Source: Psilocybe cubensis (lineage: Eukaryota). From it: 64,000 nt of DNA. Shown in pieces: positions 13,672-60,944 of the stretch (its first letter is position 1; every line of letters starts with the position of its first letter). Under the pieces are notes generated by a model. That model ran no database searches. It saw only the letters and a list, made by a program, of their open reading frames with translations, and was not told the origin of the DNA. The stretch is taken from assembly GCA_017499595.2 (NCBI GenBank), contig CM039002.1, positions 1,798,001 through 1,862,000 of the forward strand, read 5' to 3'. The position numbers were made by a program, and so were the translations under genes.

Positions 13672-14452
13672 TATTGCGAATTGCGAAGGAACGCGTAAGC
13701 GGATGGATACGAGTGTTGGTAGTAATGTGTGAGGATGTGTAATGATGTGTGGAAACGAACTAGGCGTTACCCGGAGCTCGGGGTGCGATGCGAACGCAAG
13801 TTGAAAAGACGAAGTTAAACTAGCCTAATTTAAAAGGGTTACTTTTAACTAGAAATAACTCGGGGATTAGGCGACGGGGGCCCGCTCAACCGAGGTTAAC
13901 AAGTCGCGTAAGGTGTGCTCGTTCAACCCTACTAGCAGCGGCAATGTATGGCCGGGCCTGGTAGAGGATAAAAAGCAAAAAAGACTAAAATGACCGTTTT
14001 GTGAAAACTATGCAGAAAGCAACTTGGTTCGCAAAACACGGAATTGGAGCGCTTAGAGCGCGGGGCCCATAACCTGTTGAAGCAGGCGAGCTCGGGGCAG
14101 TGTGAGCTACTTGGCGACCTAGTTATAGAACGTAGGGCGCAGGGATAAGCGAGCACGAAGCGTCTAAAGTCCAAAGTGAGTAACTGAGTGAATTGAGCAA
14201 AGTGCTAACAAACTAACCTGAAGTCCGAAGTGAGTAACTGGGGACTTCAGGATGTAAACTAGAGTGACTATATACTATGTAGACTCAAGTACTCTGGTCT
14301 ACCTAGGTCTACTCTGGTCCGGTCCAGACCAGTCTATGGACTGATAAATATCATGTGTCTAGAATGGTCTGGAGAGCAAATGAAGATAAGAAGAAAATAA
14401 TCTAATCTGATAAGATAGCAAAGTGAGGGAGACATAGAGAGCAGTTTTAACA

Positions 14453-26166: not shown

Positions 26167-26174
26167 TGGTGCTT

Positions 26175-27284
26175 CTAAAAATTTTTCTTTTCCTCATCTT
26201 TCTGCTCCTTGCCTTCCAAGATTAATTTCCCAAAGTAGTTAGCCAGTTCTTCATGGGTCATAGCATTGATGTTAACTGATGACCTGCAGTTTACAGCCTT
26301 ATGACCAGGCTTTCTGCACTTGAAGCAAACAATTGGCCTAACTGACTTCCATCCAGAGTCAACCTCCATGGGAACTACATCTGGTTGCTTTGCCTGAGCA
26401 CCAAAGGTCCTTGAGCTGCTGTTGGAAAAGACTGGAGGATTTGGAGTAGGCTTAGGAACAGCCTTGGGAGTTGGGGCTTTAAGAAAGGGAGAAGATGAGG
26501 AGGAGGAAAGAGACTTGGTAAAGGCCTCACTCTATCTCTACTGCCTATCTAGCCTAGTACTCCATTTAATCCATCCATCCAAGGTTTTGGGCATGTCAGG
26601 AACATAGTAAACTGCATTCCTGAGATTTTCATTGAGCCCAGCCTTGAATTGGTCTACCAAAGCAGCATCATTATACCCAGTATCTGAGATCAGAGCCCTG
26701 AAGCTAGCAACATACTCATCAGCAGTCTGTCTGCCTTGCTTGAGCATGTGCATTTTATGCTTAGCTGTGTTGGAGGGGTCTGGATCTGCAAACACTTCCC
26801 TAAATTCATAAACAAAGTCAGCCCAAAGACCTTCTTGGGACTGAGCATTGTCTATTACTTTAGTCTTCTCATATGCCCACTTCCCAGCAGTACCTCCTTT
26901 CATATGAGATAGAGCACAAATAACTTTCTGAAAGTCATCTGTAATCCCTTTCCCATAGAAATATAATTTGAGCTGACTGAGGAAGTTTTCTGCCTTCTCC
27001 ATAGAACCATCAAATGGATCTGGAGGTGAGACTTTAATGACAGAGTGTGAACAGGAAGGGGCAACATGAGGGGTAGGGAAAGAGTGAATATCTAGAGCAG
27101 CAGGTGGTGGTGGTGGTGGTGATGATGGTGACTGACTGACTGGTTGCTGAGGGTGTGGTAGAGTGGATGATGACTGCTGCTGCTGTCTAAGAAAATTCAA
27201 CTCTTGGGTAAGGAGCTGGACCTGATGCATGAGCTCTTCCACAGAAGGAGTGGTGGGAGGCAATTGGGAGGGGTCCATGTCCAT
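26175..27284 (-). pseudogene. gag: gypsy Gag with two in-frame stops (TGG>TAG, CAG>TAG near 26532-26540)
   Basis: Colinear with the intact gag at 39706-40815; CFKCRKPGHKAVNC knuckle. Confidence 0.92.
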
Positions 27285-36151: not shown

Positions 36152-36900
36152 ACAAAGAAAGCCTTTGAGGAATGCCTGGAGTTGTTTTGCTGAGTCCTAA
36201 GACCCAGTAGTTGTTGTGTAGAACGATGAAGATGATGTTGAGAGTAATTCCCACGGTGACTACATGGCAGTAACAGATCAAGAAGCGATGTTGCTGTTGG
36301 TGCTAGAAAGGCCTTTATTTCTTACATTCACACTGATTACCAAGCTGCTGAATTTCTTGCCAAACCTCCTTTACCTCTCAAAATAGAGTTTTGTAGAGAT
36401 AAAATGGGTCTCAAACTAAAATTTTTCTTCCTTTAACTTGCTTTATTGTTTTTGTTCTGGAGACTTGTTAGAACACAGAAAAGTGTTAAAACTGCTCTTC
36501 TCTGTGTCTCTCTCACTTTGCTATCTTATCAGATTAGATTACTTTCTTCTTATCTCTATTTGCCCTTCGGACCATTCTAGACACATGATATTTATTAGTC
36601 CATAGACTGGTCTGGACTGGACCAGAGTAGACCTAGGTAGACCAAATTACATGTGTTTACACAGAATATAGTCACTCTAGTTTATACCCTGAAATCTCCA
36701 GTTGCTCACTTCAGACTTCAAGTTAGTTTGTTAGCACTTTGTTCAATTAATTTAATTACTCCCTTTGGACTTCAAACACTTCATGATCACTTATTCCCAT
36801 GCACTACATTGTATAACTAGGTTGCCAAGTAGTTCACATTGCTCCAAGGTTGTCTGCTTTAACATACCCTTGTATTATGGCTCATGTGAGTAACTAACTA

Positions 36901-38505
36901 CAGTGGGCAAAAAAACCATTTGAGTGTTGGTCACGTATGAAAAGATTAATTTATAACTTTGAAATTAAAAATGTTAAAAATATGAGATTATTCACAGATA
37001 TACTATATGGTGTTAGCTAAAGGATGACACACTGATCATGTGATTTGTCTAAGAATTGACCAAACAGCAGCATACACAATTTGCTAAGTCATTCGAACAG
37101 TTTTTTTGCTAGTAATTTAAATGCTATAAACTATGTATTATCACATGACTTTGTTGATATACCAAACAACTATCAATAAAATCATGTGACTACATGTTGA
37201 ATAGGTATATAATAGCTATAACCAACCTCTTTATCCTCCCAATCAAGCATAAAACCCCTCTCTAAAGCAACCATTGCTACTATTGTCTCTCTTCTTACTT
37301 CTGGTCACTCCTATGCCTCTATCAAGGCCCAGACTGGAGCTAGTGCTGGTTCTATCACCAAGATTTGCCAAGACTACTGTCCTGAGGCAGTGGTTTCCCA
37401 TGGAGGACACCCAAAGAAGCTGACTGGTGCCAATATCACCTATACCAAGCATGGAATTTGAACTGGACAAATCAAAAATGCTGTGCAAGCTGCCAAGTCT
37501 CTGGTTACTATTAATGGCCAGAATATCAGTCCTCAAACAGTTAGGAATGCACTCAAATCAACTGGCATGGTCTCAGTGGCAAAACAAAAGAAGCCTTTGT
37601 TATCAAAAAAGCATAGGAGGGCTAGATTGGAGTTTGCAGAAAGGCACTTAGAGTAGACTGTGGATGACTGGGCAAGGGTCTAGTGGTCAGATGAGACCAA
37701 AATCAACAGATTGGGTTCAGATGGCAGAGATCAGGTGTGGATAGACAAGGAAAACAGATAGGACCCCAGGAGGATCAAGCAAACTGTGAAGTTTGGAGGA
37801 GGAAACTTAATGATGTGGGGTTGTATGGGATGAGAAGGAATTGGATTTGCCACTAGAATTGATGGAAAGATGGATGCTCAGTTATACACTGAGATCCTAG
37901 GTAATGAGCTCCTAAAATCCTTGGAGTGGTATGGTCAACAGGTAGAAGATATCCACTTTCAGCAAGACAATGACCCCAAGCACACTTCAAAATTGGCCAA
38001 GAAATGATTTGAAGAGCAGAATTTTAGGGTCCTCATATGGCCTGCACAATCTCCAGATCTCAACCCCATTGAACATCTATGGGAATACCTTAAAAGAAGA
38101 CTTAATGAACATGAAGTCCCACCAAAGGGTATCCATGAACCTTGGAAGAGGGTTGAGAAGGAATGGAATAGAATACCCAAGGAAGTGGTGCAGAATTTGA
38201 TTGCTAGCATGCCTAGAAGGTGTGCAGCAGTGATTAAGGCCAAGGGTGGACATACAAAGTACTAGTAGATATGATTTATTGATACTCAAGTGTTTAGCAA
38301 AAAAACTGTTTGAATGACTTAGCAAACTGTATATGCTCCTATTTGGTCAATTCTTGGAAAAATCACATGATCAATGTGCCATCCTTTAGCTAATACTCTC
38401 TAGTATACCTGTGAATAATCTCATATTTTTAACATTTTTAATTTCAAAGTTATAAATTAATCTTTTCATACGTGACTAACACTCGAACGGTTTTTTTGCC
38501 CACTG
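36901..38505 (+). mobile_element. Tc1/mariner DNA transposon, copy 1, ~200-bp TIRs
   Basis: TA|cagtgggcaaaaaaacc ... ggtttttttgcccactg|TA. Confidence 0.95.
37249..38265 (+). pseudogene. Tc1 DD34E transposase with lost start (ATA) and five in-frame stops
   Basis: WSDETKINR, FQQDNDPKH and [15 protein letters not shown]; 34 residues between the second D and the E. Confidence 0.93.
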
Positions 38506-39705
38506 TAAATGCACAACACCCTTGCTATCCTCCTTGCCATCCCTCCACAGCACCTCCTCCCTCATCTCTGCAATTTCCACCACCACATCTGCAACCCACT
38601 TGCTATCCTGCTTGACTGCTATTATCCTTTCAAGCCTATGTGAAACAATGCTCTAAGCCACAATCTCTGCCAGAAGGAAGTAAAAAAGGATTAGATGCTG
38701 CTTGACAAAACAAGACACTGCCTGGAGGGCTGCCTTGCCTATTGAGTTTGAGAAAGGCACTGTCAGGGTTTCTCCAGTTTCCCCTCTTTATCTTCACAGA
38801 ATTATCTTATCCTTTCATTATCTTATCAATTATCTGATTAGATAGTTTATTTCTTTCATCACAGCCTTCTTGCTCCACTTCTTTCTAGTAAATTCTATAT
38901 CATTCCTAGTCTTACTCATCCTTTTTCTATATGATGTCACTTTTATTCTTTAACCTTCCTTTATGATGTAATGTAGAGAATATTCTAGAATAGCTATAGA
39001 GTATAAATACTGGACTTGTAGGTAGCTGTAGCTTCAGCTTCAATCTCTTAGGATATCCACTATCATTGGTGTGATCTCTTAGAACCATTGAATCTCTCTC
39101 ACTCTCTTATTCTCTCTTTGCTCTCTTACTCTCCCTCTGCTCTCTTTCTCTCTCTCTCTCTTGCTTAATCTTTGTTGGTGGCCTTGTCACACTGATTATA
39201 GTGTTGCCCTGACAGAAGATTGAAGCTCTCTCAAGACAACTCCACCATCTCTCTTTCAACACCAAACTCTTCACCTCTTCAACCTCTTCAACACCATTAC
39301 CTCAACCTTCTTCCTCCACTTCCAACCCATCAACCTCTTCATCAACCTCTTCACCAATCTTCTTACCAATCTCTACATCTCCACCAATCTTCAACATCCT
39401 CCTCAAGACCTTTCCTCAAGACCTTTGGCTCATCATCTTTCCTACTCTCTGTTGTGTGCTGTGTGTGAACTTAGTAGATAGGGATACCAACTGTTGGGGC
39501 AGACACAGTCCTACTAGTGTTCTGTTTTTGGTGGTCTAGGAAATATCCAGTAACCCTGTGATCCTAGGTTTAGAGCCCTGAGTGGTGTGACAACTGGGTA
39601 TCCAGTAGATAGATATTTTTTTAGAATACTTAGTATAGTTTCAAGGGCACTTTCAGTAGATAGCTTCTCCCACACACACATCAGAGAGCCTACCTACCCC
39701 TACCC

Positions 39706-40815
39706 ATGGACATGGACCCCTCCCAATTGCCTCCCACCACTCCTTCTGTGGAAGAGCTCATGTATCAGGTCCAGCTCCTTACCCAAGAGTTGAATTTTCT
39801 TAGACAGCAGCAGCAGTCATTATCCACTCCACCACACCCTCAGCAACCAGTCAGTCAGTCACCATCACCACCACTACCACCACCACCTGCTGCTCTAGAT
39901 ATTCACTCTTTCCTTACCCCTCATGTTGCCCCTTCCTGTTCACACTCTGCCATTAAAGTCTCACCTCCAGATCCATTTGATGGTTCTATGGAGAAGGCAG
40001 AAAACTTCCTCAGTCAGCTTAAATTATATTTCTATGGGAAAGGGATTACAGATGACTTTCAGAAAGTTATTTGTGCTCTATCTCATATGAAAGAAGGTAC
40101 TGCTGGGAAGTGGGCATATGAGAAGACTAAAGTAATAGACAATGCTCAGTCCCAAGAAGGTCTTTGGGCTGACTTTGTTTATGAATTTAGGGAAGTGTTT
40201 GCAGATCCAGACCCCTCCAACACAGCTAAGCATAAAATGCACATGCTCAAGCAAGGCAGACAGACTGCTGATGAGTATGTTGCTAGCTTCAGGGCTCTGA
40301 TCTCAGATACTGGATATAATGATGCTGCTTTGGTAGACCAATTCAAGGCTGGGCTTAATGAAAATCTCAGGAATGCAGTCTACTATGTTCCTGACATGCC
40401 CAAAACCTTGGATGGATGGATTAAATGGAGTACTAGGCTAGATAGGCAGTGGAGACAGAGTGAGGCCTTTACCAAGTCTCTTTCCTCCTCCTCTTCTTCT
40501 CCCTTCCTTAAAGCCCCAACTCCCAAGGCTGTTCCTAAGCCTACTCCAAATCCTCCAGTCTTTTCCAATAGCAGCTCAAGGACCTTTGGTGCTCAGGCAA
40601 AGCAACCAGATATAGTTCCCATGGAGGTTGACTCTGGATGGAAGTCAGTTAGGCCAATTGTTTGCTTCAAGTGCAGAAAGCCTGGTCATAAGGCTGTAAA
40701 CTGCAGGTCATCAGTTAACATCAATGCTATGACCCATGAAGAACTGGCTGACTACTTTGGGAAATTAATCTTGGAAGGCAAGGAGCAGAAAGATGAGGAA
40801 AAGAAAAATTTTTAG
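39706..40815 (+). CDS. gag: gypsy Gag, intact, CCHC knuckle
   Basis: 369-aa ORF with PDPFDG, KQG..TADEY, PMEVD and CFKCRKPGHKAVNC. Confidence 0.93.
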   Translation: MDMDPSQLPPTTPSVEELMYQVQLLTQELNFLRQQQQSLSTPPHPQQPVSQSPSPPLPPPPAALDIHSFLTPHVAPSCSHSAIKVSPPDPFDGSMEKAENFLSQLKLYFYGKGITDDFQKVICALSHMKEGTAGKWAYEKTKVIDNAQSQEGLWADFVYEFREVFADPDPSNTAKHKMHMLKQGRQTADEYVASFRALISDTGYNDAALVDQFKAGLNENLRNAVYYVPDMPKTLDGWIKWSTRLDRQWRQSEAFTKSLSSSSSSPFLKAPTPKAVPKPTPNPPVFSNSSSRTFGAQAKQPDIVPMEVDSGWKSVRPIVCFKCRKPGHKAVNCRSSVNINAMTHEELADYFGKLILEGKEQKDEEKKNF

Positions 40816-40823
40816 AAGCACCA

Positions 40824-43800
40824 TTGGTGAAAGACATGTCCCAATGGAATAGATTTAATGTACTAGAAAATGAAATTGATAGACTTGATCCTCAGTCTTC
40901 AGATTCTGGTGCAGAAATCATGTCTTCTTCTTCCTCTCTTTCTACCTTCCCTGAAAAGATCTACATCCTCAACCATAATCCTAAAACCTCTACCCATTTG
41001 TCTGTCATCTTAAAGACAATAGACACAGAGAAAAGGTTATCTGTTGATGCTTTGCTTGATTCTGGGGCTACTGGCCTCTTTCTGCATTCTGGTTTTGTGA
41101 AGTATCATAATCTCAACACAAGGAAACTTCCTAGAGCCATTCCAGTCTATAATGTTGATGGTACTCTCAACAAGAGTGGCTCTATCCATGAGGAAGTAGA
41201 CTTAATTATGGTACACAAAAACCATACAGAAAGGGCCACCTTTGCTGTTTGTGACTTGGGAGACAAATCTGCTATCATTGGACATACTTGGCTTTGGCAC
41301 CATAATCCAGATGTTGATTGGAAGACAGGGGATGTTTAGTTTATTAGATGTCCCTCTGACTGCCAAATGGAAGCCAAAAGAGCCAGAAGAAAGAGGCAGA
41401 GAATAGCTGCAGTCAAAAGGAGGAAACTCCCTCAATTTGATGAAGAAGAAGATGATTCTATTGAAGATTCTTCTGATTCTGAGATTGAGCCTGAGGATAG
41501 AATTTTTATTTCATACCTTCATCCTCAGAAGCAGTCTATTAATGCTACTTCTACTATGTCTCAAAGATTAGCAGAAGAGTCTCATCAGCAAGCTGATTCC
41601 CCTAAGAAAACCTTTGAAGAAACTGTTCCTAAGCACTATCATCAGTTTAAAGGTGTTTTTTCAAAGGAATCTTTTGATAGGCTACCAGACAGAAAGCCTT
41701 GGGATCATGCTATTGAGCTGAAACCTGGTTCTGAACCTTACAGATCCAAGATTTATCCTCTTTCTCCCAATGAACAAAAGGAACTTGATGCCTTTTTAGA
41801 GGAAAATCTGAAGTCTGGCAGGATTAGACCCTCCAAGTCACCTATAGCCTCCCCTGTATTCTTTGTCAAGAAGAAGGATGGATCTCTTAGGCTTGTCCAG
41901 GACTATAGGAAACTGAATGAAATGACCATCAAGAACTCCTACCCCCTTCCACTGATTTCTGACATTATCACCAAACTCAGCAAAGCCAAATACTTCACCA
42001 AACTTGATGTTAGGTGGGGATTTAACAATGTCAGAATCAAAAAAGGAGATGAATGGAAAGCAGCCTTTAGAACCAATAGAGGGCTGTTTGAACCATTGGT
42101 CATGTTCTTTGGTTTAACCAATAGTCCTGCTACCTTCCAAACTATGATGAATGATATCTTTATTGAGCTCATTGATGGAAATGTTGTCATTGTCTACATG
42201 GATGACATTTTAATTTTCACTGAGACTCTTGATCATCATAGAGAGGTAGTCAAGCAAGTTCTGCAAATCTTAGAACAGAACAAACTCTACCTTAAAGCAG
42301 AGAAATGTGAATTTGAAAAGAAAAAGATTGAATATCTTGGACTAATCATTTCACAAGGCAGGATTGAGATGGATCCTGTCAAGGTAGAGGGAGTTTCTAA
42401 ATGGCCTGAACCTGAAAATGTCAAGGATGTCCAATCATTTTTGGGATTTGTTAATTTTTATAGAAGGTTTATAGAGGATTTTGCAGACATTGCTAAGCCC
42501 CTTCATGAATTGACAAAGAAAGGAACAGTCTGGAGATGGAGTCTTAGACAGCAGGAAGCCTTTGACCAGTTAAAGAAGAAAGTCACTTCTTCACCTGTCT
42601 TGATTTTCCCTGATGATAACAAGCCATATAAAGTTGAAGCAGACAGTTCAGATTATGCTACTGGGGCTGTTTTATCTCAGGAAGGATCAGATGGGAAATG
42701 GCATCCTGTAGCCTTTATGTCTAAGAGTCTATCTGAAGTAGAAAGGAATTATGAGATCCATGACAAAGAGATGCTGGCTATTATCAGAGCACTAGATGAA
42801 TGGAGACATTATCTTGAAGGAACCCAACATTCCTTTGAGATTTGGACAGACCACAAAAACTTAGAGTACTTTATGGTTGCCCAAAAGCTCAGCAGAAGGC
42901 AAGCCAGATGGTCACTCTTCCTGTCCAGATTTGATTTTACTCTTCATCATAGGCCTGGTAAAAGATCTCTTAAGCCAGATGCTTTGTCTAGGAGACCAGA
43001 TCATAAAAAGGGAGAGAATGATAACCAAAATGTAGTTCTCCTCAAACCTTCCTACTTTAAAATCCAGGCTCTCAAGCAGGGTCATGCTACCATTACTGGT
43101 GCAGAAAATGATCTTCTTAAGAAGATTAGAGAAGCTAAGGAGATGGATGAAAAGGTGGTCAAGGCAGTTCAGGAGCTCAAGAAATCTTCTACCAAGAAGA
43201 TTGAAGGACAGGAATGGTCAGAAGAACAAGGCCTTATTCTCTACAGGGGGAAGGTGTATGTTCCCAAGGACAAAGATCTTAGAAGAAAGATTGTGGAACT
43301 GCACCATGATGCCTTCATTGCTGGACATCCAGGGAAATGGAAGACAATTGAGCTAGTCTCTAGGAATTATTGGTGGCCAGGAATGTCACATTTTATTGCA
43401 GCCTATACCAGAGGTTGTGATAGATGCAACAGAACCAAAACCTTTCCAGCCAAACCTCTTGGCCTTTTAATTCCTACTGAGATTCCCTCTGATGTCTGGC
43501 AATGCATCTCTGTGGACTTTATTATGGGGTTACCAGAATGTCAAGGGTATAATGCCATTATGGTGGTTGTGGATAGACTTAGTAAAATGATCCACATTAT
43601 CCCTACTACAGATGAAGTCACTTCTGAAGGGACAGCCAGACTATACAGAGATTATGTCTGGAAACACCATGGCTTACCCATTAAAATTCTGTGTGATAGA
43701 GGTCCACAGTTTGTCTCAAGGTTTATGAAAGAACTCAACTCAATACTTGGTATCCAGACAGCCTCATCTACAGCCTACCATCCCCAAACTGATGGTCAGA

Positions 43801-44693
43801 CTGAAAGAGTTAACCAAGAAATTGAGCAGTATCTTAGACTCTTTATAAACCATAGACAAGATGATTGGGTTGAATGGTTAGCTCTAGCTGAATTCTCTTA
43901 TAACAATAGAGTTCAGGCTTCAACCAGGCAGACACCATTCATGCTCAATAATGGCAGACATCCCAGAATGGGCACTGAACCCCTTAGAGATAGTAAAATG
44001 GACACTGTGGATACCTTTGTGAAAAATATGGAAGAAGCCAGGAAAGAAGCAGAGTCTGCACTTAGAAAAGCTGCTGATGATATGGCTAAATTCTATAATA
44101 GACACAGAGGTACTCCAACTCAGTACAAAGTTGGGGATTTGGTATGGTTGGATGGCAAGGACCTCAAAACTGATAGGCCCTCCAAGAAATTGGATGATAA
44201 AAGATATGGGCCTTACAAAATTACCAAAGTTATTAGCCCTAATGCCTATGAGCTTAAGCTGCCATCTACCATGAAAATCCATCCAGTGTTTAATGTGGTT
44301 AAACTTCTACCTTATCACCCAGATATTGTAGGAAGAAAGCCTCCTTCTAGACCACCTCCTGTCATTCAAGGAGAAAATCCTGAGTGGGAAGTTGAATTTA
44401 TCAAGGACAGCAGACTTTTTAGAAACAAACTTCAATATTTGGTCAAGTGGAAGAACTATCCTAATGAAGAATGCACTTGGGAGCCTGCAGAGCATTTGAA
44501 AAATGCTTCTAAGGCTATCAAGGACTTCCATGCCAAACATCCTTCAGCACCTAGAAGGATTTCTGCTATGACCTTTGATAGACTTTCTTTCACTCCTATT
44601 ATTAACTTTACTGAACCTCCTCCTCTTCTTAAACCCTCTAAACTAACCCATCCATGTGCACATTGTGGAAAATGTGCCTTAGAGAGGGGGTGA
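40824..44693 (+). pseudogene. pol: gypsy Pol with one nonsense mutation (CAG>TAG at 41337-41339)
   Basis: ORFs 40824-41339 and 41367-44693 are in the same frame and match copy 1 Pol. Confidence 0.93.
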
Positions 44694-49309: not shown

Positions 49310-50112
49310 GCCAATAGGCTGAAGCAGGCTAGACTGGCATGTCATGACTGTGACAATGTACAGCCACATCACACACTTCAAAGAGGTGCAGCTATTGCCA
49401 TGTCAGCAACTGTTGTCAATCCTCTTTTACCAAGAAAGGGTTCCAACAGTAGTTTAATGTCTTTGCGGATCTAGAAAGATGTTTCTAGCAAAACTGTGAG
49501 CTTTCTATACCAAGGGAAGACCTCTTACCATTTAATTTTTAATGTCCTAGGTCATAGGACACAGGGATTACACCAGCTAATGCCAATTTTAAGCTCCTTT
49601 ACCAAGAAAGCACAATCATGCCTGGTAGTAGACCGAGTCTGTCTTCTGGCTTCCTGTTGGATGCAAAAATGGCTGGTATTTGATTTATATAGCACACAAA
49701 AGCCCTTTTTGGGCTCCTCAGAGCATGGGAAAAATCCTTGATGATGGTGGTTAGAGTCAAGGATTGGTGATTCCAAGATCAATCATACTAATGCAATGTC
49801 CTTCAATACATGGAAAGTGGATAGGCCCCAAGTTTACAAAGAACACCTGTAGCAAAGGCAGTGAGATTGTTAGCAATTTCTGGATGCCCAGTAAAATTAA
49901 GATTCCATTTTGACAAGTGGCAATTGAAGTCTATGAACATGTAGGCACAGAGAGGAAGAGTGGCAGCCATACTCTTCAAAAGGTTGATGGCAGTATGTCT
50001 GTTATCAGAATAAACATTTAGAAAGTTGTATGACTTGCCAGGGCAGAAGAAAGTCAGAATAAGCATGTTACTATAATTATCACAATGCATGAATGGTTGA
50101 TACACACTCAAA
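49310..50112 (-). pseudogene. Decayed LINE endonuclease fragment
   Basis: FLNVYSD...DFNCH motifs typical of a LINE APE domain. Confidence 0.65.
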
Positions 50113-50114
50113 TA

Positions 50115-51719
50115 CAGTGGGCAAAAAAACCGTTCGAGTGTTGGTCACGTATGAAAAGATTAATTTATAACTTTGAAATTAAAAATGTTAAAAATATGAG
50201 ATTATTCACAGGTATACTAGAGGGTATTAGCTAAAGGATGGCACATTGATCATGTGATTTTTCCAAGAATTGACCAAATAGGAGCATATACAGTTTGCTA
50301 AGTCATTCAAACAGTTTTTTTGCTAAACACTTGAGTATCAATAAATCATATCTACTAGTACTTTGTATGTCTACCCTTGGCCTTAATCACTGCTGCACAC
50401 CTTCTAGGCATGCTAGCAATCAAATTCTGCACCACTTCCTTGGGTATTCTATTTCATTCCTTCTCAACCCTCTTCCAAGGTTCATGGATACCCTTTGGTG
50501 GGACTTCATGTTCATTAAGTCTTCTTTTAAGGTATTCCCATAGATGTTCAATGGGGTTGAGATCTGGAGATTGTGCAGGCCATATGAGGACCCTAAAATT
50601 CTGCTCTTCAAATCATTTCTTGGCCAATTTTGAAGTGTGCTTGGGGTCATTGTCTTGCTGAAAGTGGATATCTTCTACCTGTTGACCATACCACTCCAAG
50701 GATTTTAGGAGCTCATTACCTAGGATCTCAGTGTATAACTGAGCATCCATCTTTCCATCAATTCTAGTGGCAAATCCAATTCCTTCTCATCCCATACAAC
50801 CCCACATCATTAAGTTTCCTCCTCCAAACTTCACAGTTTGCTTGATCCTCCTGGGGTCCTATCTGTTTTCCTTGTCTATCCACACCTGATCTCTGCCATC
50901 TGAACCCAATCTGTTGATTTTGGTCTCATCTGACCACTAGACCCTTGCCTAGTCATCCACAGTCTACTCCAAGTGCCTTTCTGCAAACTCCAATCTAGCC
51001 CTCCTATGCTTTTTTGATAACAAAGGCTTCTTTTGTTTTGCCACTGAGACCATGCCAGTTGATTTGAGTGCATTCCTAACTGTTTGAGGACTGATATTCT
51101 GGCCATTAATAGTAACCAGAGACTTGGCAGCTTGCACAGCATTTTTGATTTGTCCAGTTCAAATTCCATGCTTGGTATAGGTGATATTGGCACCAGTCAG
51201 CTTCTTTGGGTGTCCTCCATGGGAAACCACTGCCTCAGGACAGTAGTCTTGGCAAATCTTGGTGATAGAACCAGCACTAGCTCCAGTCTGGGCCTTGATA
51301 GAGGCATAGGAGTGACCAGAAGTAAGAAGAGAGACAATAGTAGCAATGGTTGCTTTAGAGAGGGGTTTTATGCTTGATTGGGAGGATAAAGAGGTTGGTT
51401 ATAGCTATTATATACCTATTCAACATGTAGTCACATGATTTTATTGATAGTTGTTTGGTATATCAACAAAGTCATGTGATAATACATAGTTTATAGCATT
51501 TAAATTACTAGCAAAAAAACTGTTCGAATGACTTAGCAAATTGTGTATGCTGCTGTTTGGTCAATTCTTGGAAAAATCACATGATTAGTGTGCCATCCTT
51601 TAGCTAATACCCCCTAGTATACCTGTGAATAATCTCATATTTTTAATATTTTTAATTTCAAAGTTATAAATTAATCTTTTCATATGTAACCAACACTCAA
51701 ACGGTTTTTTTGCCCACTA
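50115..51719 (-). mobile_element. Tc1/mariner DNA transposon, copy 2 (transposase pseudogene 50355-51371)
   Basis: Reverse complement of 36901-38505, flanked by TA, with the same inactivating stops. Confidence 0.95.
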
Positions 51720-53399
51720 TATGTATCATATCAGTATCTTTTTTATTGTTATTTTTCAATAATCATTTAAATAATTTTATCTTATTCACCTTATTTTTTT
51801 TCTAAACTTTGCTTCCACTTTGTTCATCTGATATATAATATTCTTTACTCCATTTTTTTAATTCTATTTTCTTTAGCCTGCATTTCTGTTTTCTTAAAAT
51901 CTATAATGCCTTTATTTTTCTTTATATGATTATCTATCTACCTTCTTGTGTTTTTTATTTTGTTTTTCTCTTTTAAATACTCTCAGTTTTACAGTATAAA
52001 TACAAGCTAGATTGTACTTCTTTTCTCTAGCAAATAAAAAGCCTTTTAAACCTATTATTTAAACTCACAAATTCATTTTCCATATACAGCAATAATATGC
52101 TCATTACTCTTCAAGTCATGGTAGTTACTTGTATCATAGTTGAACTTTAGCCTGATTCACAATCATTGAATTTTTTCTGAATATTATATGGTTAATTGTC
52201 AATACTGCAATTTGAATAGACATGGCTCAATCTAATTTTAAGGCTAAGTTAGTCCAAAGCATTATTTCCAAGTTACAATCACAAAAGTTTATTATAGAAA
52301 AAGACAATAACAAGAACTTGTTGAAAGTCAAATGTATTATTGCAGAGAAAAACAATATGCTCAAAATCAAATAAGCTGGGCTAGATTCTGTGACTAGAAA
52401 ACTATGAGCACAATGCTAGGTTTTAAAAAAGGACTGTATACTCAATCTGGTACTTGTATAAAACTTGAAGAAGAAACAGGCAAAGAGTAGAAAATATAAG
52501 TAAAATTTAAAGATTATTAACATTTTCTATTATATTCATATTTTTGTTGTGTTCTATTTATAGCCACCACATTAGCTAAAAAATACTTATTTGCTACATG
52601 TGATATTGAAATATAATACAAATAATAAGAAAAAAACATTAAAATCAAGAAAAAATATGTAACCACATTGCAAAGGAAGAAATGCAAGCTTAACAAGATA
52701 TAGAGCAAGAATTATTTTACTCATATGTCCACTATTAATGCCAATATTCAAACAAAAATCAATAATAAGCAAGAATTATTCATAACATACATTGTTTTAA
52801 GATCAAAGAAGAAGTAACAGATAGAGGTTGAGACAGGTTATAATAATGGTTTGTTTATGCAGATTATTAATATTAGTAGCTTTTATAGTTATTAGTTCTC
52901 AGCTACCCCCCAAGGCCAAGTCCTTTACCAAATTTATGTCTAGAAAAAAATCACTTTGACATTAAACTACCATAACTGCATTTATTGTCAATTTTTTACA
53001 ATATTTGTTGGAGATTATTAATTGACTTGCTAGGGAAGTTGTGTATGTTCCATACATTGCATGCTATGTTAGTTCTAGCATGTTAATTTTTAAGGTATAG
53101 AGAGATATATTTATAGTTAGTAGATAGACTAGTTAGTTTCATTCCGGCCTTTTAGAAAAGTTAATCTCTGTATATACAATAAATTGAAGATGTTAGAATT
53201 CAAAAACTATACTCTTTTTGAGGCTATTATTAGATCTTGATATTTTACCAAGTGAATAGCAAATAAAAACCCCTAAGAGAAATATAAAGATAAATTATAT
53301 TTCTATTAAGGCTAGAAAAGCAATACTTACAGTATGTAGAATTAAATATAAAAGTCAGCATACTTTTTATTCTTTAATTTTGAAACATGATTAGATATA

Positions 53400-55166
53400 T
53401 CAGCAACAAGTACAAACTTGTTCACTGCCTAAAAAGAAGGTAAAAATAAGAAATAGAATTTGGCTTGTGGAAAAAGGTGTATCTAAAATGTATATTAGAA
53501 AAAGTAAATAATAAATAATAAATACTCACCTGGTTAATCAAGGCTAGAACCTTTCCAAAAACATTACCAGGAAGAAAATTGATAATCTCATCAATTTTTT
53601 CTTTATCAGAAACAGAATCAAGATATGTCCAGTCAGCAGTCCAGTCCAAATCATCGTCTTCCGCAATTTTATCTTCATCTTCCACTATCATAGTACTTAT
53701 TTTTATTGAGTACATAAAAAAACATAAAGAAGCAAACACAATACTTTTTTTGGTTGAGCATATAGAAGAATGAGGATTAACTGTTTCAATAAAAGCTTTA
53801 GCTGCTAGATGAATAGTGTGCTCCATGCACCTTAAAAATTATAAGAATATGGCTGAGTTTATAAAAATAAATCACTTACTGTATGCAACGCTAGCAAGCT
53901 ATCCAGTGCCTTTGAAAACTAGTGTTTAAAACATGTTGAAGACAGCGCATAGCTTTGTCGTTAAAGGTAGCATTATCTGCTGTCCCCCAACCAATTTAAA
54001 CATAATATTAGAATAAATGTACAAGAAAATAAAGATATATATTTTATTCTGTATTTCAAAGCGGTCAAAAATAGCCATAGCAGTTGCAGCTATATTAGCA
54101 CTATCATGATTATCTTTAATTTTCTCAAAGCCCAAGACACAAGATTTGAGCTCCCAATCAAGAGGCTTTTTGGGCGGGCTATCAATATAATGAGCAATAG
54201 TACCAAGATATGGATTATATGACTTTAAGGTCCAGACATCAAAGATAATTGATATTTGACTAGGAATAGTCTAAATTTTATAAGTATAGGCTTATATAAA
54301 GTGAAAATGCAATGAACATACTTTGAAGTGACCAATTAAGTGGTTAACTGCTACCTTAGCCTTCTCTATAACCTTTTTATGCAATTTTGTATGCTTAGAA
54401 ATATTATTATCCTTCATAGAAGAATGCTGGTATTTTAAAAGAGCTCAAAAAGAGTCTTTTTCAATTACCAAAAATGCCTACACTAATAAATATAAGTATA
54501 GAATTATAAAAAAAAAAATACATACTTGATTATTTTCAACAACAAATGAAAGTATATGCTCAAGTAGGCCTTCCTTTGTCCACTTGGGATTGGGCATAAA
54601 TATCACATATGTGTCAAGTGGCCTCAAAAATGTGCTATTGGACTTGACAGGTATATCTGACTTAGCTGAATTAGGCAAACATGCAGGATTAGGGTCCACA
54701 TTAAGTTTTTTACACCTATTAAGGTACTTTTTGCCATGAGTTTCCCAATTTCTATCCATAAATTAGCATTAAAATAGAGAAAAGATATAAAAAAAATAAC
54801 TAACCAAGAAATATGCTTGCGTAATGAGCTATTGCCACCCGTTATAAAGCAAATAGCTGATGGAACTTTTTTACTTCTAAAAAGATGTGTATAAGTATTT
54901 ATTTATTATTAACAAAATAAAATAAAACTGACTAGCAGACCTTATAAATATTATCAATTTTTCTTTCTTCTCTTCTTTTTCCTTCTCCTCCTCCTCTTCT
55001 TTCTCCTTCTCCTCCTCCTCTTCTTTTACCTTCTCCTCCTCCTCTTCTTTTACCTCCTTATCCTCAGCATTTTCTTTAGCCCTACTATCTTCTTCCACTA
55101 CCACTGTCATATGCCATACTTTCTTGACTCTGTCATACAACATCATCAGTCAAATTCTATATCCAA
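53400..55166 (-). pseudogene. Decayed intron-containing hAT-superfamily transposase (central part)
   Basis: SSLRKHI, ISIIFDVW, ADNA and CMEHTIHLAAK (CxxH) motifs read across exons; several stops. Confidence 0.8.
54960..55060. repeat. Low-complexity ~24-bp tandem repeat (Glu/Lys-coding on the - strand)
   Basis: Repeated ccttctcctcctcctcttcttt units. Confidence 0.8.
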
Positions 55167-55265
55167 CTTGTTTTAGTGGGCCACCGCGGAGCGTGGCATG
55201 ACGAGTCTTTACGATTCAGCGTCACGCTTTGTAATAATATAATATATATATAATATAATATAAAT

Positions 55266-56240
55266 ATGTCCAACTTTGACGTGGATATTGGTGCAATGGA
55301 CGAAGTGATATTCAGACTCCAAGGCATAGTTAGCGACAAGATGCTACCACCAATGGCAAAGCCTGCTTCATACATCCACTCCATTGAGGTGAATTAATTA
55401 CAAATGAGGACTGTTACAGCCGCGACAAAACGGTCAAGCAACAACCATATTTACGTACCGCCATTGCTATCACGGGACTCGGAGACATTGTGTTCAATAA
55501 GGTGATGGAAAAGCTAGAAAAAGTTTTCCTCCGTTTTGCAAACAATTTTCCCGCGGACAGCGTCAGCGGCTATGACCCAGTTCTTCACAAAGACACGGGT
55601 TTCAATGTTTTCCATGCGCATAGCCAATATTTCACGAAGGTATCCGCATATCAAGACAAATCTGACAACATAGGTTTTCATCCCCTGGTCAACCCTGATA
55701 ACGTGTTGGCGTCCATGGTAGGGGACAGTTTCATCCACGCAATCAATAACAAGGTACAGTTTCTTCGTTGGGAAATACTTCCTGACGGAACAGCCAGGTA
55801 TGTTTAGAAAATACCAACAACACATCACAACCAAACTAATATCATGTTGCAACAGATATTATTCTTATAATCCTGCCTCCATACGAATTGGAGACATTGT
55901 CGAGATCAGTGTTGCCTTTGTCGCATTTCCTGCCTAAGGAAACAAGTACAAATTTGTTGTCGCTCTTCGCGGAATACTTGTCTTGGACCAGGAGGCAAGA
56001 GAGGTAAGCAATGTTACATTGAACAGTCTCATAGCCATTCATAACATCCAACAGAAAGCTGATATTCTCAGAATGCGGTCGCGCTATACTCCAGCGAAAA
56101 GACAGGTTGCTGTTTTGTGTAGGACAAAGAGGCAGCTGTACAAAGGTCAGATTGATATTGAAGACACGCAACAGAGGATGGCACGTATGCGCTTAAATGA
56201 GGACACAGTCCACAATAGCAATACTATGTCCCAAGATTAA
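55266..56240 (+). pseudogene. Cargo gene A: four-exon hypothetical protein, possibly OB-fold ssDNA-binding-like; disabled
   Basis: Exons read EVIFRLQGIV..LPP / LRTAIAITGLG / IRIGDIVEISVAF...LRGILVLD. Introns at ~55369-55419 (donor apparently GT>AT), ~55798-55855 and ~56004-56053. In-frame TAA near 55935. The fold is inferred. Confidence 0.65.
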
Positions 56241-56385
56241 TACATATGTACATAGAAAGACAAGGATATCATAAATGTGCTGAACGAACAATCAATCCAT
56301 TTGCGTGAACATTGTAAATAACAAGGAATAATTTGTCAAGTCATTTTCATGACAGAAATTATCTGAAGGTGTTAGTTGGCACCCC

Positions 56386-56565
56386 ATGGGAGAATCCTGC
56401 GTACACTGTACGCAGAATATTCCCACACTCAGCTGAATATCGGCGAGGAAGTCCATGGGAGAATTCTGCGTACAGTGTACGCAGAATATTCCCACACTCG
56501 GCTGAATATCGGGAGAGGTTGACCGTGGGAATATTCTGCGTACATTGTACGCAGGATATTCCCAC
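56386..56565. repeat. Three tandem 41-bp palindromes (period 69-70 bp); further copies at 58387-58427 and 58623-58663
   Basis: GTGGGAATATTCTGCGTACA-N-TGTACGCAGRATATTCCCAC at 56386, 56455 and 56525. Confidence 0.92.
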
Positions 56566-56662
56566 GCTCATCCGCAAGTCAAATTTACAAATTAAGACAA
56601 AAAGAATGAGGACGAGAACACAAGTTTATTTCGAACAAAAATTTGACTAAGGATGGAAGAAA

Positions 56663-59618
56663 TTACAAATATCCATTCCACAAGAGGCTTTGTGGTTGAG
56701 GGCAATGCAACCAGAAAATATCTGCCTTTCTGGATAGCAAATACAAAACAGTTGCATGTACACAGTCATCTTTTTGCCTACATTACAGGAATTAAATTGA
56801 CAAATACTAAAACTAAAGAGCACACACCTTATACCCCTTTCCCAGGATTTGATAGCTTTTTTGACACACTTGTGTAATTGGTAAACATCTGCCGCTGTGT
56901 AGTGAAAATCTAATGCAATACCGCTGATGCGACGGACACCAAAATGCAAACAATCAAATTCATTGAGCAACAATGCCCACGAATTGGCTTCAACAAAGGA
57001 AGTCTGATTTGCTTTGGGTAAAAGAGGCAAAGAATAAATCCAACAATGCCTGTTGCCAACCCGTCTAATCCCAGGAGAGAACAACTCTGGATAAGGATTG
57101 TAATCCAGCACAACGAGAACATGACCATGAGATGAACTATACCCAACATTTACGTTGTCCCTGATAGACTGTATCCTGCTTTGGATATGGCGGTCCATTT
57201 TCAAAGTTTGCAATGGAATGGAAAGAACAAATTTGAAGCCACGGGAATGATATTTTGCAAGAAATTTTTGCGCGCGCTTGAGGTCGGCAGAAGGTTGCAA
57301 CAGAGAGACTTGATATCCAAAGGTAGCATTTGGATACAAGCTGTACACCTTCTCAAAGGTAACAAAATTCATGACGCCGGCTGCAGTAGAACAAAATTGA
57401 AGTTAACATTGTTTTGACACATGACATTGGGGACATACTGCTATGATACCCCAAAATGCACTCTACCACCGATTGACAAGTCGTAATCAGTTGGACAAAA
57501 GAACCTTGGCACCATAGGTTAACGACCACTCCAGTGGTATTGTAATGTCGATGAAGAGGATGTTTCTGAAGGACAATTTTTTCCATTTTCAAAATTTTTT
57601 CCGCTGTGGTGTTGTCCGGATATTTGGGATGCGGCATGATAGTAAATCCAATGGACATCATCCAGGAAAAAACAGGAAGAGCATATCTGTGCTCGACATA
57701 CATGTCCATGTCACCCGGAATCCATATATTAGCACGATTGATTACGAAACTTTATGTAAGTAAAGCGAGTTCTTTTATCCCCACAACCCACTGTACAAAA
57801 ATATGTCCTTGCCAATTGTCCCTATCAGTAAATCATTGATGCCATCAAAATTGCGTGATTAATACCGGTTTTTTACTTAACCGGTATGCTTGACTTAATA
57901 ATCGGTTACTATCATAGAATTTCTGTTAGTTTTTGTTCCTACCAAGGGGATATGGAAATTAAAATACTAGATATTAGCTAGGTAGATAGGTTAGCTGCCA
58001 TATGGTAGAAAACAAAATTAAATACCATTACATTATGACTTTTTAATTGCAAGTTAAACATTTTGACGCAGATAATCATCACTCATAACCAAAAATTTTA
58101 TAATAATGACCTCATTCAACTGATTTAAGGCCATTAATTAGTCACAATCAATTACATACCAACTGTTTTGCATGCTTTATACACCTCTAACGGCAAGTAG
58201 AGGTAAATAGAATGCTTTATTGTTATCAAAAAAAATTTATCATGAATGACTAGCAGACTGTGGTGTCATAGAATAAAGAATAATAAACATTATGTATCTA
58301 GCTATTATCTTTAATGCCACTTCAAATAACTTGTCATATTAAACTTGTTGTGCTGTTCATACTGGCCATGAATTAATAAGCAGACTGTGGGAATAACTTG
58401 CATATAGTGTATGCAAGTTATTCTCACGGTTGCCGCACTTTGCATTGAGCAACTTGAACTTCTCTGGTAATTCCTGATATATTACTGAGATGCATTGCAT
58501 ATACTTTAGGTAAAATACAAGTATTTTTGGCAATAACAATTATTTTCAGTCCTAGTTTAGATGATCTTATTATATTTTACTTGCTATGGTGTTTGTACTG
58601 GCCGTGAATTAATAAGCAGGTCGTGGGAATATCCTGTGCACACTGTACGCAGGATATTCCCACGGTCACTACACTCAATTTGCATTGAGCACTGGCCACT
58701 TTGGTCAAGAGATGGTCATTTTGAATAATGTTTTCCATGCATTGAATGTATTTTGGGGAAGAAATAATGCACTAACACTTGCAAATTATGCTTGAAATAT
58801 GTTTCCACACAGCCAATTGTGTTCACAGCAACATCAAACTATGCCAAAAAGAAATATGCGCACCAAACAAATGTTTTTGCACACAATATTGTTTCACTCT
58901 TGATGCACTTTTCAAAAATAAAAAAATTATATTTATGGGAAATATGTCCCCACTTGGGCAGCCATACACATGAGCATTCTTCCATCAGTTTTCCATACGG
59001 GATTCTCCCAGCAGATCTGGAATTCTTCAATATTTAGCAGGTATGAAAATTATAATAGACAAGTTCTTCCTTACAATTAGGCCTTATAACCTGTGCAGCT
59101 ATTTTTTGTGTCTGACACAACTAAGCTTGTAGTAGACCTAAGTCATAGTAATTAATCATAACCTTGCCCAGTATCTGGCTGTGCATTCAGAACATATTAA
59201 TATATATTAACTATGTTATATAAATCTAGATTAAAAAATATTTTATACAATTGTGAGATGTAAAGTCTTGTCATGCCACGCTTTGCGTTGGACCACTAAA
59301 ACAAGTAAAATGCAAAACGGTGGAACCTGAAATAACCAGGCCAGTCTTGAACTGGAGAAGACGAAACAGCAAATGTTCATTGGGTTTGAAGATAGGAGCA
59401 AATAAATTTTTGGGACGGAAGGCGCGGCGCATATAGCCCGAAACGCGGTTGTTTAGCTCCTTGCAAGTCCAAGAGAAACGGTAGAGGGTTTTCAGATCCA
59501 TCTGATCCATGTACACATCGTCCATGGGAGGCGGAAAGACTCTAAAAAATAAGTAATAACCAAATGAGATAAAACAGTGAACATACTGTTGGAAACGGGG
59601 GGATAACGCGGAAGCCAT
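56663..59618 (-). pseudogene. Cargo gene B: F-box-like N-terminus plus nucleotidyltransferase-like domain, split by the nested element
   Basis: Removing 57742-59305 restores ISGSTVLHF-INRANIWIPGDMDMYV. After splicing three GT-AG introns it reads YHSTGVMNF and KYHSRGF. Confidence 0.75.
57742..59305 (+). mobile_element. Nested 1564-bp non-coding Helitron2-like element of the same family
   Basis: A|TTACGAAACTTT ... gccacgctttgcgttgg-accactaaaaCAAG|T; no TSD; precise removal restores the reading frame of gene B. Confidence 0.85.
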
Positions 59619-60289
59619 GGGTAAAACAGTGCGGAGAAAAGTGCATTGTCTATACTACGTCAATAAATATATTAACTGTAAGCCGATAGACGCCCGACAT
59701 AGGGGAAGAACAAATTGGTATGCGTGAGAAATGATCATGAATCAGAAAATCAAATTCAAATAGTACAGAACGCCCAGAACCCAAGAACGCGTAATTATTT
59801 CTATTTGAACTCTGATTGATGAAGCTACCGATATCAAGGAACATGTGTGCCTGCACAGTTCTATTTCCAACCTTTCAGACCCATAGTTCAAAGAGTGCAT
59901 TTGTTCCATCTCTAAGTATTAGTACAATATATAAGCACGTTGGCTAGACGATTCCACATGGTTTTAAAAATTAAACAACAACGCAAAAAAGTAAATTGAG
60001 TAGGACTATTGTTGTTGGGTATAATTAATTTTATGGAAATGCACATTCACATTGCGATCAAAACAAATCAAAAACAACCTTTAAAGTAACCAATGGTAAA
60101 AAGAAGTCGTAGAATGAATTGGAAAGGGGTTGCTTAGGGGGTCCGGTGACCGCCTAAGGAAAATACCGATAGCGGTAACAACATTGATCGCATCAATAAT
60201 ATTTTGATGGGGACAATTGGCGAGGACATTTTTGCTCGCTGGGTTGTGGGGATAAAAGAACTCATCTTTACTTACGTAAAGACTCGTAA

Positions 60290-60944
60290 CTTCTGTCTTC
60301 CAACTTTGCCTCTAACTTTGGTCCTTGACTTTGTCTCCAACTTTTGTCTCTCCGACTTTAGTCTGACTTTGTATGTAGACTTATCTCAGACACTTGTATC
60401 ACTTTTCCTAAACCTTACTCCTTTCTTCATTATCCTTATTCCTATTTTTTATTCCTTATTTTTATTCCTTATGACTTATTTATTCTTTTTGACTTATTTT
60501 TGGTGGTTTATTCTTATTCCAACAGCAGTATATAAACCCTTTCTGTTATAGGCTAGAATCCCTAAACTGATTATTAACTTGGTACAACTTGGGTAACTTG
60601 AGTAATCTAGACATTTTTGTTCATTTGCTATTTTGTCCAACTTTGCTTTGAACTCCGATTCCGACTTTGATTAGACTTAGGCTCTAAAGAACTTAAGTCT
60701 GTCTCAATAACTTCAATCCGACTTCAACCAATACTCAACTGACTTTGTCTTTGACTTAGTCTCTTGCCTAGTACTGTTCTCCTCTTAGATCACCATATCC
60801 AAATTAAGGCATGAGATATAGGAAGAGCGCAGCATATAAGCTGAAGCTAAGCTCTCCAACCACCAAATTTGACAGCAACTTTGTTCTCTGACTTCCGTCT
60901 ACAAATTTGCCCTTGACTTTGTTCCACTTGACACAACCCTAACA
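60290..60944 (+). repeat. Probable 5'-truncated solo LTR of another family
   Basis: Pyrimidine-rich with repeated gacttt motifs, TATATAAA near 60529, ends cctaaca; no TG start or TSD seen. Confidence 0.5.

Follow-up and report, generated by a model that had tools for sequence, protein, structure and literature searches.

A young Helitron2-type element of Psilocybe cubensis without Rep/helicase and with a gene for a predicted ssDNA-binding fold

How does a rolling-circle transposon that encodes no Rep/helicase (RepHel) multiply in a mushroom genome, and what are the genes that it carries? The question is raised by a stretch of 64,000 nucleotides of Psilocybe cubensis (GenBank assembly GCA_017499595.2, contig CM039002.1, positions 1,798,001 to 1,862,000), which was analysed as a whole and is here called the window. 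At window positions 55167 to 60289 lies a 5123-bp element, E1, which a preliminary description, made from the letters of this DNA, took for a Helitron2-like element with a two-gene module. E1 and a smaller element nested in it, E2, are of Helitron2/HLE2 type by structure and behaviour. We lean slightly towards the reading that E1 is a semi-autonomous element moved in trans, which has kept an accessory gene (gene A) resembling that of a single-stranded DNA-binding protein (SSB), and in which the other gene (gene B) is a passenger.

Terminal structure of E1 and E2

Both elements were delimited by their termini and by joints in sequencing reads. The features of their ends are as follows, ATIR standing for asymmetric terminal inverted repeat.

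55167 to 60289, minus strand: E1, Helitron2-type element without RepHel, 5123 bp, with its 5′ end at 60289 and its 3′ end at 55167
60275 to 60289, minus strand: 5′-ATIR of E1, TTACGAGTCTTTACG, with 14 of 15 bases complementary to 55199–55213
60265 to 60282, minus strand: 5′ hairpin of E1, TCTTTAC-GTAA-GTAAAGA (bases 8–25 of the element), overlapping the 5′-ATIR, from folding against shuffled sequences
60149 to 60289, minus strand: 5′ terminal region that E1 has in common with E2, about 145 bp, 78% identical, from sequence comparison
55199 to 55213, minus strand: 3′-ATIR of E1, subterminal, its end 32 nt from the element's 3′ end, from ATIR pairing
55180 to 55197, minus strand: 3′ GC hairpin of E1, between the 3′-ATIR and the ...CCACTAAAACAAG end, with a stem of about 7 bp and one bulge, kept in E2
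57742 to 59305, plus strand: E2, a non-coding older relative of E1, 1564 bp, nested in gene B (exon 2) in antisense orientation
59259 to 59305, plus strand: 3′ end of E2, with a degenerate 3′-ATIR, a hairpin and ...CCACTAAAACAAG; 40 of the last 48 nt are identical to E1

E1 starts with TTACGAGTCTTTACG, so that the 5′ 15-mer stands at element base 1 (60289 to 60275). At the other end the order is 3′-ATIR, hairpin GCCACGC-TCC-GCGGTGGC and then ...CCACTAAAACAAG. A terminal 15-mer inverted against a subterminal 3′ copy, a GC hairpin and a CAAG end had been noticed in the preliminary description, and all three are there, with the reservation on hairpin energy given below. When up to two mismatches are allowed, the ATIR 15-mer has two matches in the 64 kb versus 0.03 expected, and two or more matches were reached in 0 of 100 shuffles. 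The 5′ hairpin of E1 has a 7-bp stem with −4.7 kcal/mol (z −2.86), and 4 of 200 shuffles were as good. Its counterpart in E2 is weaker, with a 6-bp stem (z −0.21; as good in 72 of 200 shuffles).

E2 is nested within E1 in the opposite orientation and has the same asymmetric end layout. The 5′ stretch of about 145 bp of E1 is repeated at 57742–57885 (78% identical, E 4e-25), and about 47 bp of its 3′ end are repeated at 59260–59306 (87% identical, E 6e-10). With each element aligned in its own orientation, the likeness breaks off sharply after about 145 bp on the 5′ side and about 48 bp on the 3′ side. The ATIR of E2 is degenerate (10 of 15 bases complementary), and its 3′ copy likewise ends 32 nt from the end. 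Recurrence of both termini in a second element had been claimed before; that the second element sits inside the first goes beyond that claim. A third stretch resembling either terminus is absent from the window, and scans of metagenomes for the 5′ and the 3′ terminal motifs gave 0 and 0 matches.

Two other explanations were rejected. First, the repeats could be terminal inverted repeats (TIRs) of two overlapping cut-and-paste elements, with 55166–55212 paired to 59260–59306 and 57742–57885 paired to 60149–60289; the pairs interleave, and the read joints fit nested Helitrons. Second, E2 could be a spliced intron; it starts with CTTG in the orientation of gene B, not with GT, and there are DNA reads without E2.

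The layout resembles that of Helitron2, for which Bao and Jurka (2013, PMC3627910) describe elements that begin with a 5′ T, whose 5′ ATIR is 0–2 bp from the end and takes part in a 5′ hairpin, and whose 3′ ATIR lies upstream of a 3′ hairpin; HELIANO lists the same feature set for HLE2 (PMC11417382). The 5′ ATIR of E1 is at base 1, within the 0–2 bp of Helitron2, and the element starts with T. The 3′ ATIR of both E1 and E2 is 32 nt from the end, within the range of about 20–40 bp, and is followed by a hairpin that is weak by energy. A 5′ hairpin using the ATIR is present in E1 and has a weaker counterpart in E2. As in Helitron2/HLE2, the non-autonomous copies share only their termini.

Other rolling-circle types fit less well. 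Canonical Helitron1 has 5′-TC, 3′-CTRR and a single 3′ hairpin without ATIR, whereas E1 starts with TTACG, ends with CAAG and has ATIRs and a 5′ hairpin. Replitrons are described with termini that bear short direct repeats (PMC10288648), and such direct repeats are absent from E1 (TTACGAG... versus ...AACAAG).

Copy number, insertion sites and mobility

Public reads or contigs of four runs (X15, X1, X10 and X11) were matched to 54800–60700 at a likeness of at least 85%. X15 is a raw-read run of 1632 million letters, and the assemblies are of about 40–47 Mb. In X15 the left flank has a depth of 36.5, as expected for a single-copy locus, and the depth in all 25 bins inside E1 is 642–967 with a median of about 705, the nested E2 being at the same depth. 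With about 19 times the flank depth, the E1 family has about 19–20 copies. Because 23,910 of the 29,533 reads are at least 95% alike to the window, the family is young.

Reads leave the element at two fixed bases. Loose read ends number 382 at 55166, just outside 55167, and 261 at 60289, and the flank consensus agreement is 0.39 at both, so the copies occupy many different insertion sites. Contigs of X10 and X11 also exit the element at the same two boundaries into other sequences. Thus the termini, whose pairing elsewhere was a point to be checked, are paired in E2 and, by the reads, in many genomic copies.

Sites without the elements were found for both. A joint of 55164 to 60288 that omits exactly 5123 bp occurs in 28 X15 reads and in one 829-bp X1 contig, and a variant joint occurs in 11 further X15 reads. 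The joint reads amount to the whole locus at the coverage of X15, and therefore the E1 site is empty in those genomes. E1 is recently active, young and still insertion-polymorphic between genomes. A joint of 57741 to 59306 that omits exactly 1564 bp occurs in 39 reads, called on a depth of about 700, and these come from E1 copies without E2; compared with that depth, 39 reads correspond to one or two such copies. The E2 junction is ambiguous by a single T, and therefore E2 has no target-site duplication.

The corresponding joint of E1 is less clean, and here the assignment has to be weighed. Three observations speak against a Helitron2-type element. First, the empty-site joint of E1 is ambiguous by 5 bp (AACTT), which fit on either side and, taken alone, are readable as a target-site duplication. 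Second, the energy of the 3′ hairpin is no better than that of shuffled sequence (z −0.87 for E1 and +0.86 for E2). Third, neither reading of the two reconstructed sites gives a clean T|T as in HLE2, and a strict T|T rule is neither borne out nor contradicted by them: with TTACGA...CAAG as the element, inserted before T, the sites are G|T (E1) and A|T (E2), and with TACGA...CAAGT as the element, inserted after T, E1 has T|T and E2 has TGAT|A. Insertion in Helitron2/HLE2 is between T and T (HLE2), or follows TTTT or TNAT.

Together with the lack of a RepHel, the first two of these would suit an element that is not a Helitron, namely a cut-and-paste or other DNA transposon that duplicates 5 bp of its target, or a segmental duplication that is dispersed and whose ends look like those of Helitron2 by chance. 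We regard this as very improbable. The E2 joint, ambiguous by only 1 bp, leaves no room for a target duplication, and given this result the AACTT overlap of E1 is put down not to a duplication but to a likeness between the target (..AAG|TT..) and the element's ends when joined (..CAAG|TTACG..). Moreover, the ends of E1 are not TIRs, as one repeat is terminal and the other is subterminal; E1 and E2 have ends of the same asymmetric layout; hundreds of reads end at two fixed bases with unrelated flanks; and the direct terminal repeats by which Replitrons are described (PMC10288648) are lacking.

A Helitron2-type element thus remains our assignment, as it was in the preliminary description, and it agrees with ATIRs, hairpins, precise ends in about 19 copies, and empty sites for both E1 and E2. 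Target-site duplication, which would have spoken against it, is absent for E2, and the E1 joint has the 5-bp overlap. The likeness to Helitron2/HLE2 extends to the lack of a target duplication for E2 and to precise empty sites, with E1 alone ambiguous. From Helitron2/HLE2 as known, including FoHeli1/2 of Fusarium oxysporum (PMC5148889), E1 differs in the following: its 3′ end is ...CAAG, its target is N|T or T|N and not strictly T|T or TTTT|T, and it has an agaricomycete host and two complete or near-complete spliced genes.

Several variations among the genomic copies were seen alongside. A 119-bp deletion in gene B (57565–57683) is in 113 reads, about 16% of the depth, a 39-bp deletion (59800–59838) is in 47 reads, and one 69-bp palindrome unit (56407–56475) is lost in 11 reads. 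Two stretches are common with other abundant repeats: a short one in E2, 58932–58966, with 714 loose ends at 58932 and 618 at 58966, and one in the E1 leader, 59933–60007, with 428 loose ends at 59933. The bins holding these two stretches have a depth of about 900–970. At 31 of the 36 best-supported differences between the window copy and the family majority in X15, the window has T/A and the family has C/G; 19 of these 31 sites are in CpG context, and 11 are in TCG. This excess of T/A looks like methylated-CpG deamination or a process like repeat-induced point mutation (RIP) acting on the repeat.

Genes A and B and the palindromes

The interior of E1 holds two convergent spliced genes with palindromes between them. 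These had been noticed in the preliminary description, and two corrections are now added: gene B is split by E2, and gene A has an in-frame TAA in the window copy.

55266 to 56240, plus strand: gene A, 271 codons, with exons 55266–55388, 55439–55797, 55856–56003 and 56055–56240
56663 to 59618, minus strand: gene B, 412 codons with E2 skipped, with exons 59618–59587, 59541–59306, then E2, 57741–57439, 57380–56828 and 56777–56663
56384 to 56573, no strand: three tandem units of 69–70 bp, each with a palindrome of about 41 bp, separating the 3′ end of gene A from that of gene B
58384 to 58668, no strand: two palindrome copies of E2, 58384–58430 and 58622–58668, inside a 236-bp tandem duplication

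Gene A has many relatives. With exon 2 as query, an exhaustive profile-free search gave 110 representative clusters at E ≤ 1e-3. In a profile search 54 proteins came out at E ≤ 1e-5: P. cubensis accounts for 11 of them, a further 36 are named and belong to other Agaricomycetes, and 7 are unnamed. The P. cubensis relatives (n = 11) are 72–100% identical to P0006, and the hosts of the family include Coprinopsis, Pholiota, Lyophyllum, Armillaria, Laccaria, Mycena, Pleurotus, Dendrothele and Paramarasmius. Every named relative is annotated as hypothetical, uncharacterized or predicted. Judged by sequence, gene A belongs to an unnamed Agaricomycete-wide family, whose full-length members have about 300 aa.

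The family is predicted to fold like ssDNA-binding proteins of phages and giant viruses (T7 gp2.5, Enc34 and CP312R of African swine fever virus, ASFV). An AlphaFold2 model was made from an alignment of 40 sequences with a Coprinopsis member first, and it reached a predicted local distance difference test score (pLDDT) of 86.8 and a predicted TM-score (pTM) of 0.79. When it was compared with the PDB by Foldseek, four matches (three entries) reached E ≤ 0.001, and these as well as the five ranked after them are all ssDNA-binding proteins; ASFV CP312R (8.6e-7), T7 gp2.5 (4e-4) and the Enc34 SSB thus come ahead of all other solved folds. BFVD gave 120 matches at E ≤ 0.001, and of the 50 listed the leading ones are giant-virus proteins. 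The predicted model has the architecture of a gp2.5-type oligonucleotide/oligosaccharide-binding (OB) fold.

An acidic C-terminal tail is used for partner docking by SSBs of the T7 gp2.5 type. In their last 45 residues, all of 40 gene A family members compared have abundant acidic as well as basic residues, with 4–13 Asp+Glu and 6–13 Lys+Arg each, and a KRK/KRR motif is common among these tails. Compared with T7 gp2.5, Enc34 ORF6 and ASFV CP312R (PDB 1je5, 5odl and 8hw5), the family has 8–11% identity and no profile match, and it has an additional N-terminal stretch of about 60 residues, the KRK motif and introns.

Other results argue against an SSB. The Foldseek TM-scores are modest (0.29–0.52), and the assignment was made by predicted fold alone, with a model of the Coprinopsis relative and not of the E1 protein. 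By sequence, gene A has no match in the PDB at E < 0.5. None of the 40 family members is below E 0.02 in PHROGs, where no phage SSB PHROG was hit, and none is below E 0.009 in Pfam, where the gp2.5-like SSB models are not among the matches at E ≤ 1. These models are PF21265 and PF10991, which we take to be those of gp2.5-like viral SSBs. The family also has no sequence homology to RPA70-type OB domains.

The state of gene A in the window adds further points against an accessory gene that has been kept, and it bears on an account in which the transposon is the same and both genes are ordinary captured passengers without a part in transposition. The gp2.5-like family would here be one of host genes, or the gene of another mobile element, and a 5′-truncated copy of it would have been acquired as DNA along with a complete gene B, a kind of capture known for Helitrons. 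The gene A product is short of about 50 residues at its N-terminus, beginning at residue ~50–60 of its relatives, and the gene's start is 99 bp inside the 3′ end of E1, with upstream sequence near-absent. The window copy has an in-frame TAA at 55935–55937. Among the private changes of this copy, 18 are nonsynonymous and 8 are synonymous, a roughly neutral ratio; this count was drawn from the 36 best-supported of 385 reported sites within the element. All of this would be natural for a captured gene, as would the introns kept in genes A and B. Capture by 3′-end bypass was shown experimentally for Helraiser, according to PMC4778049, and Pleurotus Helitrons are described as carrying orphan ‘cap’ genes (PMC4289320). 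For gene B, a donor lineage could be represented by the paralogue P0005 at 39% identity.

The nonsense codon, on the other hand, does not extend to the family. Position 55935 is C in 603 of 603 X15 reads and also in the X1 and X10 contigs, giving CAA; therefore the stop is private to the window copy, and the family consensus is intact at this site. An ssDNA-binding fold in a rolling-circle element is unlikely to be a coincidence, given the RPA precedent, and the predicted fold of gene A is of the viral kind, not the cellular one. The family membership also speaks against simple capture, as P. cubensis contributes 11 of the 54 proteins, and another 13, all from outside P. cubensis, are marked partial. 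Genes borne by transposons typically have many partial models. Capture of both genes as passengers is therefore an account that we consider possible, though unlikely.

Gene B gives a simpler picture. Its frame is free of internal stops once E2 is skipped. All of its five matches (5/5) are from P. cubensis. One of them, P0001 (384 aa), has 352 of 384 residues identical to gene B and runs ...STVLHFINRAN... directly through the E2 site; being uninterrupted, it confirms the empty site of E2 independently. A second, P0002, represents a cluster with 20 member sequences; its start coincides with the E2 boundary, which is what a gene caller would make of interrupted gene B copies. P0005 is a full-length paralogue of gene B in P. 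cubensis, 39% identical. Gene B has no Pfam match and no PDB sequence match, and an F-box or nucleotidyltransferase motif that had been considered for it was rejected as lacking Pfam support.

In about 94% of the copies gene B is split by E2, as calculated from the 39 E2-free junction reads versus the depth of about 700. Therefore the burst followed the insertion of E2, and gene B cannot be needed for spread. The older family member E2 would have entered exon 2 of gene B before the burst that yielded most of the present copies.

Could genes A and B still be a dedicated, previously undescribed element-borne system, either a self-sufficient mobility module or cargo that accounts for the success of E1? 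Over about 19 copies both genes have the depth of the termini, the family consensus with E2 skipped keeps both reading frames open, and neither gene has a Pfam family. Yet equal depth follows from one young element and is not a sign of selection, and the split of gene B in roughly 94% of the copies came before the burst. Polymorphic insertions already suggest that E2-containing copies are still transposing. No nuclease, HUH or recombinase signature was found in protein A or protein B, and the gene B family is confined to P. cubensis in its five matches (5/5). Such a system is thus highly improbable. Of the dedicated module that the preliminary description proposed, the part that stands is gene A, whose SSB-like predicted fold suits a rolling-circle element; the split of gene B in about 94% of copies and the N-terminal truncation of gene A go against it. 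That the two genes are not single-copy host genes unlinked to the termini was borne out, as they are multi-copy and linked to the termini.

The palindromes between the genes fold strongly. The array as ssDNA has −62.7 kcal/mol (z −11), as good in 0 of 200 shuffles. Over the five palindrome copies, 92.4% of the pair positions are complementary, and one E2 copy stays symmetrical by means of four double changes. Their covariation score was reached in 5 of 500 shuffles, which, with five related sequences, is suggestive only. Apart from the termini, the palindrome is the sole similarity between E1 and E2, and one pair of copies is 91% alike, above the termini. Its depth is that of E1, and in the window it occurs within E1 and E2 only, so that an independent high-copy foldback was rejected. 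The palindrome of about 41 bp probably belongs to the E1/E2 family as a cis feature. A search of the array (56467–56553) in Rfam gave mir-785 below threshold (30.3 bits versus a gathering score of 62), most likely just from a long hairpin. Central repeats have been described in non-autonomous Helentrons (PMC4067079).

Movement in trans and comparison with known systems

None of the 28 open reading frames (ORFs) of at least 60 aa in 55157–60551 matches any Pfam family at E ≤ 0.01, RepHel included, and the exon translations have no Pfam match either. This agrees with the preliminary description, in which Rep/helicase was missing. As no Rep/helicase is encoded, E1 would have to be moved in trans. 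In Helitron2/HLE2, autonomous relatives encode a RepHel of the Helitron2/Helentron clade and have matching termini.

We conceived the following course of transposition. E1 would be moved in trans by an autonomous RepHel relative, whose enzyme is putative here and to which the insertion behaviour observed above would be due. On the 5′ side the enzyme would bind to the ATIR and its hairpin, and on the 3′ side to the ATIR, the hairpin after it and the ...CAAG end. One strand would be copied, starting at 60289 and finishing at 55167, and the copy would be inserted beside a T without target duplication. A point against this course is that an autonomous partner was not seen. The X15 depth shows no excess over the termini, and a second abundant family, its termini being at least 85% alike, is therefore absent from X15.

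The nearest precedent is in plants. Plant Helitrons carry RPA-like SSB genes, and in rice the ‘mother’ element of DHH_Mothra, which has lost RepHel and kept its SSB gene, was called semi-autonomous (Roffler, Menardo and Wicker 2015, PMC4683698). E1 is like Mothra, as described there, in lacking RepHel, in having an SSB-type gene (by predicted fold), in its internal tandem repeats and in its recent activity by insertion polymorphism. It differs in that Mothra is a canonical plant Helitron1 with an RPA homologue recognisable by sequence, whereas E1 is Helitron2-type and fungal with a protein of gp2.5/CP312R type by fold only (PMC4683698). A semi-autonomous Helitron of the Mothra type also has an autonomous sister family with like termini.

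By analogy to the rice Mothra mother element, there is about an even chance that gene A is an accessory ssDNA-binding gene kept from an autonomous ancestor, which would make E1 semi-autonomous in the same sense. Gene A may then be the fungal counterpart of the plant RPA-like gene. A bolder proposal, which we put forward tentatively and consider doubtful, is that the gene A family, of about 300 residues, provides agaricomycete Helitron2 elements with an accessory factor of their own that binds ssDNA, of virus-like source and convergent with the plant RPA gene. E1 would then supply the factor while borrowing RepHel, and the palindrome would be a cis site for this factor or for synthesis of the complementary strand on a single-stranded intermediate.

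Among fungi, Chellapan et al. (PMC5148889) report Fusarium Helitrons without an RPA-like gene. In Pleurotus ostreatus, HELPO1 Helitrons carry the genes capA–capF, and helpo1.3 is non-autonomous with 1.5 kb (Castanera et al. 2014, PMC4289320). E1 is like HELPO1 as described in that source: the host is an agaricomycete, the genes are orphans without known domains, the insertions are strain-polymorphic and the surroundings are rich in retrotransposons (PMC4289320). Unlike E1, HELPO elements have canonical ends (T[C/G]...CTRR or CTTG) and an A|T target, and no SSB-like fold was reported for them (PMC4289320). The capB gene of Pleurotus is unlikely to be gene A, as capB matched five species in 2014 and the gene A family includes Coprinopsis and Laccaria.

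E1 is therefore not a new kind of system, contrary to the preliminary description, which had seen in it a candidate for an undescribed one. RepHel-less, gene-carrying Helitrons were already described, with an SSB gene from rice and, in agaricomycetes, with other genes from Pleurotus. What appears to be new is the type of SSB-like protein and its host group, together with a predicted, fold-based function for a widespread orphan family. The literature that we searched holds no report tying Helitrons to gp2.5-type proteins, those of RPA type being the only ones, and no study of Psilocybe Helitrons.

The rest of the window is rich in other repeats. A 1.6-kb element with 214-bp TIRs (94% complementary) is at 50112–51722 and at 36899–38507. 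The two copies are 98.8% identical, face opposite ways and probably represent a non-autonomous transposon of the cut-and-paste kind. A nest of retrotransposons (914–16978, 22297–26193 and 39664–44693) has several Copia pol/gag ORFs and two Gypsy elements with chromodomain integrases. The left flank at 52000–55000 is very AT-rich (26–32% GC), and the right flank at 60316–60700 has 4–5 times the single-copy depth. A hAT transposase that had been considered for the left-flank ORFs (53422–55149, minus strand) was rejected: three of the four ORFs have no Pfam match, and the fourth has unrelated matches below the cutoff (E 5.6e-4 to 4.8e-3).

Helitrons move through ssDNA. To our knowledge, an ssDNA-binding gene of their own, an RPA homologue, is known only in plant Helitrons and in a few animal lineages. 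If the reading of gene A is true, the SSB gene of a fungal Helitron2-type element would show that the same ssDNA need has been answered a second time and independently, and a widespread orphan family of mushroom proteins would be given a function. E1 itself, being young and strain-variable, is a ready marker and a possible natural system of Helitron2 transposition in a cultivable fungus.

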